Shown: piece by piece, positions 10,640 to 61,159 of the stretch
Layout of the letters: the number at the start of each line of letters is the position of its first letter
Numbering within the stretch: the stretch's first letter is position 1
NCBI GenBank assembly: GCA_963695895.1
Contig: CAVOIK010000014.1
Coordinates: 6,412-70,411, forward strand
DNA length: 64,000 bases
Direction: 5' to 3'
Origin: an uncultured delta proteobacterium
Lineage (GTDB): Bacteria; Desulfobacterota; BSN033; UBA1163
Program-made: the position numbers and the translations under genes
The notes under the pieces: generated by a model
Told to the model about the DNA's origin: nothing
Database searches by the model: none
The model's input: the letters and a program-made list of their open reading frames with translations, nothing else

Positions 10640-11095
10640 TTAGGTCGCCCTCAGCTCTGAGGTGCAATGACCACAGCGAGTTGCCTTAATGGGTATGGTT
10701 GAGAGACAGTAAGGGCACTCCTTCGTTGTCGGCACTGGAGGTGGGGCTTCTTGCTGTTTCACGAGTTTGTTGACATTTCGAATGAGCAGGAAGACCGCAA
10801 AGGCCACGATGAGAAAGGTGATGATGGTGTTAATAAAAAACCCGTAGTTGATCGACACCGCACCAGCCTCCTTGGCAGCGGCAAGAGACGCGTAGGGTCC
10901 AGCCACCTTCCCCTCCTTAAGAACCGCAAAAAGGTTGGAGAAGTCGATGTTCCCGAGCAGCAGCCCGATGGGTGGCATGATGACATCCGCCACAAATGAG
11001 TTAACGATGGTACCAAAGGCTGCTCCAATGATAATTCCGACTGCCATATCCAACACATTTCCGCGCATTGCAAATTCCTTGAATTCTTTTAGCAT
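10640..11095 (-). CDS. mscL: Large-conductance mechanosensitive channel with C-terminal zinc ribbon
   Basis: [27 protein letters not shown] signature; tail CPYC...RCGHCTS. Confidence 0.96.
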
Positions 11096-11172
11096 GAACA
11101 TCCCTCCTTTCGTATTTTCCCACTGTACCAAAGGTGGAAGCGTTTTTCAAGCATTTTGTGACCGTAGTAAGT

Positions 11173-11403
11173 AACCCCTCAGTTACCGCACAGCACACCT
11201 CGATTCCACGGAGGTTGACCTGCTCACCCGCAGCGGTCCAGTGGCGGATCCTCTTGCGAAGGACTTCACCGCGACCCTGGTAAACCATCGTGCATCAATG
11301 CCCAGAGGCTTAGTTAGGGTCACGTGTAAAACCCCGCCTCTGAAACGCGAGGACGGAGCAGGTCGACCTCCGGGGACAATGGCTGACCGGTAACTGAGGG
11401 TAC
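11173..11403 (-). ncRNA. Unidentified ~230-nt structured element, copy A (homologous to 60682..60916); strand tentative
   Basis: 13-bp perfect closing stem 11176-11188/11388-11400, 17-bp stem 11209-11225/11356-11372, further nested stems; TAGAAT -10-like box 7 nt before the 5' end on the minus strand. Confidence 0.6.
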
Positions 11404-11589
11404 CCGTGTAGCATTCTACCGCATAAAGAGCCATCCGAGACCGGCCTGTCTGTTCTACGAGGTTCATTCTCCCATCACGGAATCAAGAATGCTTCCCTGG
11501 CGGTAGTCCCCAAGCAAATGTTGACAGTGGATGGAGTTCCTCTATATACTTGGAAATCAAACAACCTCAGACAATTCAAGGGGGAAAAT

Positions 11590-13058
11590 ATGGCTGGTTC
11601 AATACCGCCGCTTCCAATTGCCAAAGGGAAAGAAGACATTTCGTTACTGCCCAAGATGGCGAACCGTCATGGCCTGATTGCTGGCGCGACCGGCACGGGT
11701 AAAACAGTATCCCTGCGGGTTCTCGCCGAGCAATTCAGTAGGATAGGGGTTCCGGTCTTCATGGCTGACGTGAAAGGAGATCTTTCGGGGCTACCATTTC
11801 CCGGGGGAGAAAACCCGAAGGTGGTTGAACGGGTTCAGAAACTGGGGCTCAAGGATTTCAAATTTGAAGGTTACCCTGTTGCGTTCTGGGATGTCTTCGG
11901 AGAACAAGGTCATCCTGTTCGCACCACGATCTCGGAAATGGGTCCTCTTCTTCTCAGCCGCATCCTCAGCCTCAACGAAGTCCAGAGCGGAGTGCTCAGC
12001 TTAGTGTTCAAAATCGCCGATGACAACGGCCTTTTGCTCCTCGATCTCAAAGACTTGCGAAGCATGGCCCAGTTCGTAGGGGATAACGCAGACCAATTTA
12101 GGACTCAGTACGGAAATATCTCAGCGGCGAGTGTGGGTGCCATCCAGCGGAACCTTCTCACTCTTGAGGAACAGGGAGGGAATCGATTCTTCGGAGAACC
12201 TGGCTTAAACATTCAAGACTTCATGCAGACCGATGGCAGCGGGAAAGGAATGATCAATATCTTGACCGCTGACCGATTGATGCAGTCTCCGCGGGTCTAT
12301 GCCACGCTCCTTCTTTGGCTCCTTTCCGAGCTCTTTGAGGAACTTCCCGAAGTGGGCGATCCGGAAAAGCCCAAACTGATCTTCTTCTTTGACGAGGCGC
12401 ATCTTCTCTTCGAAGATATTCCCAAGGCCCTGGAGGATAAGATTGAGCAGGTGATTCGCCTCATTCGTTCTAAAGGAATAGGGATCTACTTCGTCACACA
12501 AAACCCCTTGGATCTTCCTTATGTCGTCCTGGGACAGTTGGGGAATCGCGTGCAGCACGCGCTCAGAGCCTTTACTCCCAGGGACCAAAAAACGGTGAAA
12601 GCTGCTGCCGAGACGTTTCGCGCAGACCCCAAGCTCGATGTGGTCAAAACCATCACCGAATTGAGGTGTGGGTGAGGCGCTTGTCTCCTTTTTGGACGAG
12701 AAAGGGGCTCCCACCGTTGTGGAGCGGGCCTTCATCTACCCTCCTCACAGCCGACTGACTCCTCTCAGCTCCTGAAGAACGGAGCCAGATCATTCAGAAG
12801 TCAGTTCTCTACGGTCACTATGAAAAGGTCGTGGACCGAGATTCAGCTTACGAAAGACTGAAGCAAAAGACCGAGCAGATGCAAGCGGAGGAACAAGAAG
12901 CCGCAGCCGCTAAAGCACGCAAGGCCGCCCCAAGATCTCAGACCACGGATCTAGTGACAGCGGCAGCCAAGAGTGCAGCCCATGCCATCGGTAGCCAGAT
13001 CGGCCGGCAGATCATTCGGGGTGTTTTAGGATCCTTGTTCGGAGGCCGGAAGCGTTAG
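11590..13058 (+). CDS. DUF853/YjgR HerA-like ATPase; frameshifts near 12665 and 12775
   Basis: [54 protein letters not shown]. Confidence 0.9.
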
Positions 13059-35870: not shown

Positions 35871-36479
35871 ATGCCCATGGCAAAATGTGTGACGTGTGGA
35901 GAGCGGAAGGGCAATCGGCTCTGCCCGGGAGTCAATGGGAACATCTGCTCTTTATGCTGCGGAACCAAGAGGCAGAAAGACATCGAATGTCCTCGATCCT
36001 GTGACTATTTGATGAAGGGGACCGAGTATCAGTTGGATCGGGACGTCACACGAAAGATCAACGAAGATCTTCACGCGCAGTCCGAAGACGTATTCCAGAT
36101 GGAAGAGGTTATCCCCTTTGTTATGTCCATAGAAAGGTTCTTTGTTGACCAGTTTTATCATGATCGAAAGGTTAACGATGATCACCTCCATGAGTCCCTG
36201 AAAAAGATTTATGCCTTTCAGTCCGGGAAACTCCCTGTCTTGGAAGCGGAGAATGAGATCGAAAAAGTAATCTTTAAGAAGTTTCATGAAGTAGATAGAA
36301 AGGCCAACAATCTTGGGGAGAGTTTGAAGGCCAGAGCCATCCTGAGGATCATCAAGTCGATTCGGTCTTCGTCGGGCGGCGTCTTAGGAAACCGGAACTA
36401 CATCGAAATGATCTGTAGCCAACATACGGGCAAGGGGAGATGGGCAGGCTTGGTCGAGAAACTGGAGCCCAATGAGTGA
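35871..36479 (+). CDS. Hypothetical protein with Cys-rich N-terminal zinc-binding domain
   Basis: CVTC..RLCP..ICSLCCG..IECP..CDY; GAGGT RBS. Confidence 0.75.
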   Translation: MPMAKCVTCGERKGNRLCPGVNGNICSLCCGTKRQKDIECPRSCDYLMKGTEYQLDRDVTRKINEDLHAQSEDVFQMEEVIPFVMSIERFFVDQFYHDRKVNDDHLHESLKKIYAFQSGKLPVLEAENEIEKVIFKKFHEVDRKANNLGESLKARAILRIIKSIRSSSGGVLGNRNYIEMICSQHTGKGRWAGLVEKLEPNE

Positions 36480-57213: not shown

Positions 57214-57434
57214 TGTCTTTTGACCTGAGAGATTATCCCTAAATGATTCAGGGTTTTCCCCGTCGGTGTCCAACCCGTCGGCTTAGGCTCGGGGTAAACC
57301 CTGAGCAAAGTCGAAGGGCTGAATCTTTCCAGGATGTGACCTGAGTTACAGTCCTTTTGCCTGAGAGTTTCATCCTGATTCCAGGATTTGCCCCTTCGGC
57401 GCCCCCTCTTTTTAATGGGGGTCTCTCCTGTAAC
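57211..57434 (-). promoter_or_regulatory. Tandem glycine riboswitch
   Basis: Aptamer 1 ACAGGAGAGA..CGCCGAAGG.GCAA..CTCTCAGGCAAAAGGACTGT; aptamer 2 CTGGAAAGA..CACCGACGGG..CTCTCAGGTCAAAAGACAG; upstream of gcv genes. Confidence 0.92.
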
Positions 57435-57442
57435 CTACAAAC

Positions 57443-58301: not shown

Positions 58302-60614
58302 ATGTCCTTCATGAAAGAGGAGCAAAAAGTAATGGGTTCGATTCATCTGACAGACAACGCACTGACGGTGCTTCAGAAACGATATCTGAAGCGGGATCTT
58401 GAAGGAAATGTGGTCGAAACACCGGAGGACATGTTTGGCCGTGTGGCAAGGAATCTTGCGCAGGCCGATCGCCTCTACGATCCTCAGGCGAATCTCGACG
58501 CCACGTCAGAAGAGTTCTACAGTCTCATGACCTCGCTCGACTTCATGCCCAACTCCCCCACGCTCATGAATGCGGGGAGAGAGCTTCAACAACTCTCGGC
58601 CTGTTTTGTCCTTCCTGTCGGCGACTCCATGGAAGAGATCTTCGATGCGGTGAAACAAATGGCCCTGATTCAGAAGAGTGGAGGAGGAACGGGCTTTTCT
58701 TTTTCAAGAGTTCGACCCAGGAACGATGTCGTGGGTTCCACTCAAGGGGTGTCGAGCGGTCCCGTCTCCTTCATGAGAGTCTTTGATGCTGCGACAGAAA
58801 CGGTAAAGCAGGGAGGAACCCGTAGGGGTGCGAACATGGGCATCCTTCGAGTGGATCATCCTGATGTTCTCGATTTCATTCAATGCAAAGAAGGAGATCA
58901 TCATCTCAACAACTTCAACATTTCCGTTGCCGCGACCGATGAATTTATGGAAGCAGTGAGAAAAGGGGTGGATTACTCTCTTCGCAATCCGAGATCGACC
59001 GAACCCGTCCGGACCCTCCATGCTCGGGACGTCTTCGACAAAATAGTTTTCCACGCCTGGAAAAACGGGGATCCTGGGATTATCTTTATCGATCGGATCA
59101 ATCGGGAGAACCCAACGCCTCAGATCGGCCAGGTAGAGAGCACCAACCCTTGTGGTGAACAACCACTCCTTCCTTATGAATCTTGCAACCTGGGATCCAT
59201 CAATCTCGCCAATATGGTGAGGAATGGAAAGGTAGACTGGGAAAGACTCGGTTCCGTGACCGAGAGAGGAGTCCATTTCCTGGACAATGTGATCGACATG
59301 AATCGATACACCCTTCCTCAGATCGAAGCCATGACGAAGGCGAATCGGAAGATCGGATTGGGTGTGATGGGTTTTGCCGATCTCCTCATCCGCCTGGGAA
59401 TCCCCTATGACGGCCTGGAGGCTTTGAAGCTGGGCGAAGAGATCATGGCCTTCATCCAAGAGCGAGGGAGAAAAGGGTCCAGAGAATTGGCGTTGAAACG
59501 AGGATCATTCGCCAATTTCAACGGCAGCGTTTTGAACGGCCAATGGGATGCGATGAGAAATGCCACCGTCACAACGATTGCCCCTACGGGGACGATTTCG
59601 ATCATTGCAGGGGTGTCTTCGGGAATTGAACCTCTCTTTGCTGTGGCCTTCAAACGACATGTCCTCGACGGGAAGGAGCTTGTGGAGGTCAACCCTCTCT
59701 TTGAGGCGATGGCCTGGCGCGAAGGGTTTTACTCTGAAGAGCTGATGAAAAAGATCGCTCAGGATGGAAATGTTCAAGAACTGGACGAGGTTCCCGAAAA
59801 GATCAGACAGCTTTTCGTGACCGCTCACGATATTTCTCCGGAAGATCACATCCAGATGCAAGCGGCATTTCAGAGGCACACCGATAACGCTGTTTCGAAA
59901 ACGGTTAATTTCCCCGAGGATGCTTCCGTGGATGAAGTGGCGAAGGTTTACGAGCTTGCCTATGAGCTGGGGTGTAAAGGCGTGACCATTTATCGAGACC
60001 GAAGCCGCGCGGTCCAGGTGCTTTACAAAGGTGTGGCAGAGGCCGGTCAGGAGAAATTGAAGGCTGAAGTGGTAGTCACCGTCGTCGAAAAAGGACCCCG
60101 GGCTCGACAGGATGTCATCCATGGATCGACCCGAAAAATCCGCACGGGGTGCGGCAATCTTTACGTGACCGTGAACGAAGATGAGGATGGGAATCCTTTC
60201 GAGATCTTCAACCAGATCGGTAAAGCAGGAGGGTGCGCCGCCTCACAGTCTGAGGCCATTGGTCGTCTGGTCTCTTTGGCATTTCGGTCTGGAGTGACAC
60301 CGTTAGAGATCGTACGGCAACTCAAGGGGATCAGTTGTCATACCCCCGTTTGGTATCGCGAGGGGAAGGTTCTCTCCTGTGCCGATGCAGTCGCCAAAGC
60401 CATCGAGTGGCATCTTCAGGAAGAAAACGGAGTTGCCGGCGTCCGAGGAACAGGAAACTCCATCCCCAATAACCGAGCCCATAGAGAAGTAAGTCTTCCA
60501 ATAGACAATACGATCCCCATCTTTCAAAGAGGGGCTTGTCCAGAGTGTGGAGGCCCCTTGATCTTCGAAGAAGGATGCGTGAAGTGTTTGTGCGGTTATT
60601 CGGATTGTGGATAA
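58302..60614 (+). CDS. nrdJ: Vitamin B12-dependent (class II) ribonucleotide reductase with TSCPD domain
   Basis: PNSPTLMNAG, LSACFV, TNPCGE, TIAPTGTIS, AVSKTVN, C-terminal CPECG..EGC..CGYSDC. Confidence 0.95.
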   Translation: MSFMKEEQKVMGSIHLTDNALTVLQKRYLKRDLEGNVVETPEDMFGRVARNLAQADRLYDPQANLDATSEEFYSLMTSLDFMPNSPTLMNAGRELQQLSACFVLPVGDSMEEIFDAVKQMALIQKSGGGTGFSFSRVRPRNDVVGSTQGVSSGPVSFMRVFDAATETVKQGGTRRGANMGILRVDHPDVLDFIQCKEGDHHLNNFNISVAATDEFMEAVRKGVDYSLRNPRSTEPVRTLHARDVFDKIVFHAWKNGDPGIIFIDRINRENPTPQIGQVESTNPCGEQPLLPYESCNLGSINLANMVRNGKVDWERLGSVTERGVHFLDNVIDMNRYTLPQIEAMTKANRKIGLGVMGFADLLIRLGIPYDGLEALKLGEEIMAFIQERGRKGSRELALKRGSFANFNGSVLNGQWDAMRNATVTTIAPTGTISIIAGVSSGIEPLFAVAFKRHVLDGKELVEVNPLFEAMAWREGFYSEELMKKIAQDGNVQELDEVPEKIRQLFVTAHDISPEDHIQMQAAFQRHTDNAVSKTVNFPEDASVDEVAKVYELAYELGCKGVTIYRDRSRAVQVLYKGVAEAGQEKLKAEVVVTVVEKGPRARQDVIHGSTRKIRTGCGNLYVTVNEDEDGNPFEIFNQIGKAGGCAASQSEAIGRLVSLAFRSGVTPLEIVRQLKGISCHTPVWYREGKVLSCADAVAKAIEWHLQEENGVAGVRGTGNSIPNNRAHREVSLPIDNTIPIFQRGACPECGGPLIFEEGCVKCLCGYSDCG

Positions 60615-60681
60615 GAGAAGCGTGGACACGTCGGGCCGCTCTGACGGGGGAGAAATGGAAACGGAGTTTGGCAGATTTTCA

Positions 60682-60916
60682 GTACCCCGTCAGTGACTGG
60701 GTCACGCGGTCGTCCACGGAGGTCGACCTACTCCGTCCTCGCGTTTCAGAGGCGGAACTTCACAGGTGAGCCTAATGAGCCTCTGGACTTTGATGGACGA
60801 TGGTTTGCCAAGGATCGCGAGGAGGTCCTTCGCCGTAGGATCCGCCACTGAACCGCTGCGGGTGAGCAGGTCAACCTCCGTGGAATTAAGGTGTGCCGTG
60901 CGGTAACTGAGGGGTT
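60682..60916 (+). ncRNA. Unidentified ~235-nt structured element, copy B (homologous to the reverse complement of 11173..11403)
   Basis: Long near-identical blocks shared with copy A and the same nested stems. Confidence 0.6.
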
Positions 60917-60970
60917 TCGGTTTTCAAATCCTGGATAGGTAGGTTCATTAACTCATGAAAGGAGGCAAGA

Positions 60971-61159
60971 ATGGCTGTTAAGAAAGCTGTAAAAAAGGTG
61001 ACGAAAAAGGTTGCTAAGAAAGGTGTGAAGAAGGGCGATGTGTACAAATGTGGCGTGTGCGGACTGGCAGTGAAGGTCGACGCCCTCTGTGGGTGTGTGG
61101 ACACCTGTGACATCGTCTGTTGCGAAAAGCAGATGAAGCCTGCGAGAAAAAGGGCTTAG
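60971..61159 (+). CDS. Small protein: Lys-rich N-terminus + desulforedoxin-like Cys domain
   Basis: AGGAGG RBS; GDVYKCGVCG...CGC..C.IVCCEKQM. Confidence 0.75.
   Translation: MAVKKAVKKVTKKVAKKGVKKGDVYKCGVCGLAVKVDALCGCVDTCDIVCCEKQMKPARKRA

Follow-up and report, generated by a model that had tools for sequence, protein, structure and literature searches.

A riboswitch-like hairpin repeat of Syntrophorhabdus-like bacteria is very probably a MITE with IS66/ISBst12-type ends

Introduction

A stretch of roughly 230 nt with the look of a structured RNA lies at two places, 49 kb apart, in the window analysed here (64,000 nucleotides from an uncultured delta proteobacterium), and one of the two copies stands next to mscL. 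What kind of genetic element is it? A preliminary description, made from the letters of the DNA, favoured a new riboswitch, leader or non-coding RNA, and named a palindromic mobile element as the last of its alternatives.

The last-named alternative turned out to be the right one, given many copies and target-site duplications, and we hold with high confidence that the element is a MITE (a small non-coding transposon). MITEs are an ordinary kind of bacterial repeat, and the locus is not a new regulatory RNA. Several lines of evidence support this reading together: the element is multi-copy, its ends are inverted repeats, it is flanked by duplications, its neighbour genes are unrelated from copy to copy, and its ends are common to IS66-family elements of sister genomes. 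Judged from these sequence comparisons, the MITE is probably mobilised in trans by a transposase of the ISBst12 group (IS66 family). The interior of the element is conserved more strongly than its ends, which leaves a smaller question, treated below after the evidence for mobility and the evidence bearing on an RNA role.

Results

Two copies in the window

Copy A occupies the divergent region between mscL (10640-11095, -) and a gene for a HerA-like ATPase (11518-12675, +), and copy B lies between a ribonucleotide reductase gene (58302-60614) and a small Cys-rich ORF of 62 aa (60971-61159, +); their parts are listed in Table 1. The small ORF, directly downstream of copy B, is Lys/Cys-rich and has a good ribosome-binding site, and its Cys pattern is, by eye, one that we take to be reminiscent of desulforedoxin-type metal sites.

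Table 1. Features of the two MITE copies (positions in the window)
Feature	Position	Strand	Remarks
MITE copy A	11171..11403	-	233 bp; limits from sequence alignment and family profile
Copy A terminal inverted repeat, mscL side	11171..11186	-	consensus matched exactly
Copy A 3' conserved internal block	11224..11248	-	match to the core pattern
Copy A 5' conserved internal block	11334..11357	-	from sequence
Copy A other terminal inverted repeat	11388..11403	-	degenerate, minus one base
Copy B left target-site duplication	60674..60681	.	GATTTTCA; 7/8 identical to 60919-60926
MITE copy B	60682..60918	+	237 bp; limits from sequence alignment and family profile
Copy B left terminal inverted repeat	60682..60697	+	3 mismatches against family consensus GTAACCCCTCAGTTAC
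Copy B 5' conserved internal block	60732..60755	+	TCCGTCCTCGCGTTTCAGAGGCGG
Copy B 3' conserved internal block	60841..60865	+	TCCGCCACTGAACCGCTGCGGGTGA; best-conserved part of the family
Copy B right terminal inverted repeat	60903..60918	+	1 mismatch against consensus
Copy B right target-site duplication	60919..60926	.	GGTTTTCA

Much of what had been said of the two copies themselves was borne out. Reverse-complemented, copy A can be aligned with copy B over its full length (11171-11403 against 60682-60918), the shared sequence blocks that had been quoted are found in both copies, and the mean column identity is 86% when flanks are included (reverse complement of 11150-11430 against 60660-60940). 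Both copies fold into long imperfect rods, at -126.6 kcal/mol for copy A (z -8.2) and -115 kcal/mol for copy B (z -4.8), with none of 200 shuffled sequences folding as stably. The long rod results from two arms of about 95 nt each that are inverted copies of one another. The expectation that neither copy belongs to a known RNA family also held: a check against Rfam 15 gave no match at threshold for copy A or copy B, and the rows returned at E up to 10 were at chance level (best E 3-8). The sole match at gathering level in the whole window is a glycine riboswitch aptamer at 57339-57440 (-), with 74.5 bits against a gathering score of 32.

A multi-copy family

The element had been described as present twice, which is wrong even for the genome that the window comes from (G000; 2.8 Mb in 38 contigs, 74% complete). 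BLAST against this genome gave seven full copies and several pieces, and a search with a profile built from diverse copies gave 9 long copies and 11 fragments, a count that excludes 4 further rows recognised as reverse-strand echoes of the palindrome. About 19 copies, forming a diverged subfamily of about 260 bp, occur in a genome of the same family and another genus (G016). Across the class, the 25-nt 3' core pattern (up to 3 mismatches) was present in 7 of 68 genomes, with 10 matches in G000, 19 in G016 and 1 in each of five genomes belonging to two further genera; the reversed pattern, used as a control, had 0 matches in the same 68 genomes.

Beyond the class, a scan of one genome per species returned 16 stretches, 11 of them in a MAG titled 'uncultured delta proteobacterium' and one each in MAGs titled Thermodesulfobacteriota, Syntrophaceae, Syntrophorhabdus and Nitrospirota. 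A Treponema-titled stretch (L098) lacked the features of the element and was taken as a chance match. At least 120 metagenome stretches carry the core; among the 80 metagenome loci listed, 50 are near full length (at least 200 profile positions) and the remainder are mostly truncated by contig ends. A distant DNA search of a plasmid collection with the element gave zero matches.

Identity among copies is 80-95% inside one genome and about 60% between genera, a combination that, on sequence grounds, reads as the pattern of amplification and not that of conserved leaders. One copy in the Nitrospirota-titled MAG (L092:1546-1784) is 97% identical to copy B and has a 7/8 duplication of its own, and its 8-kb flanks have zero DNA similarity to G000. 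This copy fits either recent horizontal spread or a binning error, Nitrospirota being here the title of a MAG only.

Ends and target-site duplications

The terminal inverted repeats are 16-18 bp long, with the consensus GTAAYCCCTCAGTTAC(S)G (short form GTAAYCCCTCAGTTAC). Exact matches to the 16-mer end number five in G000 and 7 in G016, and at up to 2 mismatches G016 has about 39. Outside these ends lie repeats of 8 bp, such as CGGAAGAA at copy E, AAAATTTC at copy F, and GTCGCGTG, ATCCTGCG and TAAGAATC at others; at copy A the duplication has decayed, as a comparison of its flanks indicates. Inverted-repeat ends flanked by duplications of a constant 8 bp are the signature that a DDE transposase leaves on insertion.

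Where a script located both ends (24 elements, with 7 further elements left out for having one or both ends too degenerate), the 8-bp flanks were identical at 8/8 in 9 and at 7/8 in 4. A larger set comprised 53 distinct elements, 231-281 bp in length, with both ends on the contig; in exact register 13/53 of these had 8/8 and 12/53 had 7/8 identical flanks (25/53 at 7-8 of 8), and allowing ±2 registers the figures rose to 21/53 and 13/53. Mismatched flanks, taken at the best of 25 registers, reached the same levels in 10 and 12 of 2000 cases (22/2000, about 1%).

The ends and flanks also bear on whether the element is a palindrome of REP/RAYT type, or one derived from IS200/IS605, that is moved as single-stranded DNA by a tyrosine (HUH) transposase. 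Such an origin would suit the long hairpin and the small GTAAC...GTTAC hairpin that, by reading, is possible at each end, but 8-bp duplications are the rule here and REP/RAYT and IS200/IS605 elements, to our knowledge, generate no target-site duplication; moreover, the ends are true inverted repeats, common to a DDE IS66 element. We regard this origin as extremely improbable. The GTTAC/GTAAC ends had likewise suggested an attC site, a candidate that was dropped in view of the conserved interior and the duplications.

Public runs bear on the occupation of one site. DNA contigs from runs X1 and X3 extend across copy B's right end, which shows the filled site to exist in the two sets of samples. 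In one X1 contig, 60619 is connected to 60953 through about 89 letters (shorter side 30 letters, likeness set at 90). The spacer minus the element and one duplication is 333-245=88, close, in a comparison of lengths only, to those 89 letters, and the contig is a weak hint of an element-free allele at copy B.

A likely IS66-family partner

The element is small, and tblastn with IS66 transposases found no transposase gene in it. According to the ISfinder summary, IS66-family elements have ends GTAA and direct repeats of 8-9 bp; the MITE's ends start GTAA and its duplications are 8 bp, as in the IS66 family and its ISBst12 group. Excerpts of two reports give concrete cases: ISDge4, a member of the ISBst12 group, ends in GTAACTGCTCAGCA, makes an 8-bp direct repeat and encodes a transposase of 449 aa (PMC12898284), and further IS66 ends start GTAAGCG or GTAACCG, i.e. 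GTAA (PMC12888890). As far as these excerpts describe the ISBst12 group, the MITE is like it in its ends (GTAAC..CTCAG) and its 8-bp direct repeat, and the group's single transposase ORF of about 450 aa is matched at L057 and L058 (450 and 460 aa), with an end identical to the MITE's. Unlike these elements, the MITE lacks a transposase, and its interior bears no relation to theirs.

When 30 listed IS66 loci were screened for the 16-mer end at up to 3 mismatches, four came forward. At L057 the exact 16-mer stands 14 nt downstream of the stop codon of a 450-aa ORF with a DDE_Tnp_IS66 match (E 6e-40), and in BLAST this end is 100% identical to the ends of copies E and F over 19-21 nt, with nothing farther inward. 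At L071 the 16-mer, with 1 mismatch, follows a C-terminal transposase fragment. A complete IS66-family element of 2435 bp from a sister genome (L059:106-2540) has 22-bp inverted repeats of the MITE's type, a pair of 16-mer-like sites with 3 mismatches, one at each element end. L079 has one such site only, at 3 mismatches. By arithmetic, about 0.002 sites with at most 1 mismatch would be expected by chance in the roughly 90 kb screened. One further genome (G051) holds both a half copy of the element and an IS66 end. In all the IS66 elements found, likeness to the MITE is confined to the terminal 19-24 nt and stops short of the interior.

As an observation apart, L059 encodes, besides its 459-aa IS66 transposase, an upstream ORF of 296 aa that matches the Pfam families DruA (Druantia, E 2e-29) and Mom (E 1e-8), a first ORF unusual for IS66.

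Matches to Pfam DDE_Tnp_IS66 occur in 20 of the 55 genomes of the family. None (PF03050) was found in G000 (74% complete) or G016 (81%), the MAGs richest in copies; since both are incomplete, and multi-copy insertion sequences are often absent from MAGs, the missing match does not demonstrate absence. Four extra sites in G000 resembling the terminal inverted repeat (C2, C12, C3, C25), checked for a parent insertion sequence, had no transposase, and tblastn with two IS66 transposases as query gave nothing in the 80 metagenome loci listed. An IS66-family transposase is, in our assessment, the likely partner of the MITE.

Evidence bearing on an RNA role

The reading that the preliminary description put first holds that the element is a cis-regulatory leader or riboswitch, an RNA made as part of the transcripts of mscL and other downstream genes, which responds to a ligand by switching between two helices. 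Several observations speak for it at first sight. The rods are stable and their arms covary; element and called downstream gene are co-oriented in 24/30 cases by crude ORF calls; and G·U pairs number 315 on the + strand (that of copy B) and 183 on the other, and in 22 of 31 elements it is the + strand that folds more stably (Wilcoxon p 0.01, among copies that share ancestry). Transposon ends, target-site duplications, the likeness of copies within genomes (80-95%) as opposed to between genera (~60%) and the lack of an Rfam match stand against it, and the apparently favourable figures change their meaning on closer inspection.

The orientation figure is largely a matter of geometry. ORF calls around 31 elements (at least 90 aa, greedy by length) placed 14 between divergent genes, 9 in tandem with the genes, 5 in tandem against them and 1 between convergent genes, with a call missing on one side for the other 2; the convergent case is copy B, hand-corrected to tandem and pointing with the genes, its 62-aa ORF lying below the length cut-off. 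Divergent spacers score 'same' in either orientation, and the raw 24/30 is therefore mostly geometry; the informative tandem count is 10:5 (two-sided binomial p about 0.3, by arithmetic). Apparent placement upstream of genes is likewise in the main an effect of geometry. The near-absence of convergent sites is real, and fits insertion into, or tolerance in, longer promoter-side spacers. Nor are the downstream genes related: those checked are mscL and the Cys-rich 62-aa ORF, which has no Pfam match, others are by eye, from their N-termini, FtsH-like, XRE-like and response-regulator-like, and a position upstream of functionally related genes is not constant across copies.

The excess of G·U pairs goes back to shared ancestry within subfamilies, and in the C6/C33b/G023 subfamily it runs the other way. 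It had been argued that most substitutions preserve pairing through G-U and so reveal selection on RNA, but changes after insertion, counted as departures from each subfamily consensus, have no G·U bias: single changes at Watson-Crick pairs gave 70 G·U, 77 A·C and 88 other mismatches in the G016 subfamily (17 copies), and 30, 19 and 51, respectively, in the G000 subfamily (8 copies). In the two subfamilies, substitutions per site come to 0.13 and 0.11 where bases are paired, and to 0.18 and 0.16 where they are not. Inserted copies decay with little regard to pairing and without strand preference.

The mutually exclusive helix CAGAGGC/GCCTCTG, likened to a switch, does exist in copies A and B; as a family trait it fails, being found in 11 of the 47 elements with a locatable 5' block (out of 65 examined), all 11 of them members of the G000-type subfamily. 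The TAGAAT proposed as a -10 box before copy A lies outside the element and was missed by a promoter scan, and the only promoter-like site on the mscL strand (11150->11122, a consensus match only) falls between the element and mscL, so that it is downstream of the element. Three metatranscriptome runs cover small shares of the window. Short RNA-library contigs of run X18 lie on parts of the element, the one at the right flank reaching 30 letters past the end where 31 are needed for bridging, and DNA carry-over is possible for them. With the strand-specific tests of RNA selection negative or inconsistent, a riboswitch, leader or non-coding RNA finds no support, and we consider the riboswitch reading very improbable.

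The conserved interior

The interior of the MITE is set apart by two blocks, each lying about 50-75 nt in from its end and each an imperfect inverted copy of the other. Among cluster consensuses (65 elements in 26 clusters, 85% single linkage), conservation is 0.84 and 0.90 in the internal blocks, 0.73 and 0.72 in the terminal repeats, 0.52 and 0.62 in the stems and 0.57 in the apical part. In an alignment of 17 representatives the invariant columns all lie in or beside the blocks, and none in the ends. RNAalifold on the same 17 kept 24 pairs, 9 of them with compensatory changes; covariation is seen in the stems that connect blocks and ends, where a position can have as many as four Watson-Crick pair types, and one pair position displays CG, AU, UA and GC. 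A TTGACA in the apical part is also conserved, with no promoter-like spacing after it by eye. The blocks are absent from the ends of three IS66 elements that have the same terminal repeat.

Many copies, target-site duplications and a lack of covariation had been named beforehand as what would mark the element as a MITE; the first two were found, but 9 of the 24 consensus pairs covary across subfamilies. Inverted-repeat arms of a transposon can covary without any RNA role. Simple decay of a deleted insertion sequence, on the other hand, explains neither the conservation of the blocks nor the compensatory changes, and source lineages seem to have been selected for arm complementarity and for the blocks. 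Block conservation and arm covariation together suggest a constrained hairpin or a binding site, for which possible causes are a hairpin of single-stranded DNA or RNA, a symmetric protein site and, in part, gene conversion between the arms.

One may go further and suppose that the MITE carries a working module, in which the blocks pair into an asymmetrically looped helix working as RNA or as single-stranded DNA; such a module could also be a site for a host factor or transposase away from the ends, or a small RNA. Blocks conserved above the ends, invariant columns confined to the blocks and their surroundings, covarying block-to-end stems and the conserved apical TTGACA speak for such a module. 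The blocks are missing, however, from the ends of IS66 elements, so that they are dispensable to the partner, individual copies decay regardless of pairing, the TTGACA lacks promoter-like spacing, and common descent with gene conversion between the arms could produce part of the pattern. We think such a module unlikely, though with a real chance of being right. A shade more doubtful is the candidate claim that the element goes beyond a reduced insertion sequence, its blocks TCCKTCCTCGCGTTTCAGA... and TCCGCCRCTGAAMCGCTNNGGGTGA, kept in a covarying hairpin, being a functional nucleic-acid module lacking in IS66-type elements. Such a module may serve, on folded single-stranded DNA, as the site of a protein that belongs to the host or is accessory to the transposase, or it may be a small structured RNA borne by the MITE.

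Discussion

If the element is a MITE with an ISBst12-group partner, its life cycle can be outlined as follows. The DDE transposase, supplied in trans, would bind the element's ends, excise or copy the element, and insert it at a staggered 8-bp cut. Lineages still transposing would retain the complementary arms and the two internal blocks, and a hairpin or a symmetric protein site is therefore probably required for movement; copies, once inserted, would decay about neutrally. Any effect on mscL or on the small ORF downstream of copy B would be a by-product of a very stable hairpin, not a designed switch.

Published MITEs offer parallels, as far as the portions of two reviews available to us describe them. 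Chunjie, of Geobacter uraniireducens Rf4, is likened here by its published description: it has a host of deltaproteobacterial type and lies mostly in intergenic DNA, is 178-235 bp long with 21-bp terminal inverted repeats and flanking direct repeats, has predicted RNA hairpins of -98 to -130 kcal/mol, and is present in tens of full and many partial copies (Chen et al. 2008 via PMC3184786, PMC10969869). By analogy in size, ends, duplications, copy structure and predicted hairpin energy, our element appears to be a close analogue of Chunjie; the two differ in that Chunjie has 9-bp direct repeats and is A+T-rich, whereas the MITE here has 8-bp duplications, G+C-rich stems and GTAA ends of IS66 type. 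The terminal repeats of Nezha, a cyanobacterial MITE, match an insertion sequence known only from another species, and mobilisation in trans by a related transposase was inferred; it differs in IS family, in length (130-170 bp) and in host (PMC3184786). In bcr1 of the Bacillus cereus group, a small mobile repeat, compensatory base changes preserve a double-stranded structure, as in our element, and it differs in having 5-bp direct repeats and in that its transcription has been demonstrated (PMC3184786).

A MITE with IS66/ISBst12-type ends in Syntrophorhabdus-like bacteria would add to a known kind of element. A limited literature check found no description of the element and no paper on an IS66-derived MITE family (PMC3189936 names IS66 twice, outside this scope), and the word 'IS66' is absent from the main text of a 2024 review of prokaryotic MITEs (PMC10969869); IS66-linked MITEs seem to be little described. 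The outcome removes a false riboswitch candidate and supplies a usable definition of a repeat family through its ends, its duplication length and its core pattern. That family breaks assemblies and litters the intergenic regions of Syntrophorhabdus-like bacteria of sediments and wetlands, and its interior, conserved above its ends, poses a small question of what a MITE requires in order to move.

Variant copies

Several copies depart from the common form. Copy G (L006; G000 C33:31317-31562) contains a 14-nt insertion, CCTCGCGGTGCACCG, in which a portion of the 5' conserved block is repeated, and its right end is degenerate. Outside the window, at G000 C2:~36040-36091, a mini derivative of about 50 bp consists of hardly more than both terminal repeats and sits 125 nt off a contig end. 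Four metagenome copies (L103, L107, L138, L168) represent a longer subfamily with an internal insertion or duplication, about 95 extra bases separating profile positions ~6-80 from 71-253. Another metagenome copy (L118:3336-5187), the sole example of such widely spaced arms among the 80 loci listed, is split by about 1.7 kb, its apical part replaced by an unrelated insert with a 356-aa ORF whose N-terminus (…LGLDVHK…) is, by eye, like that of an IS110-family transposase.
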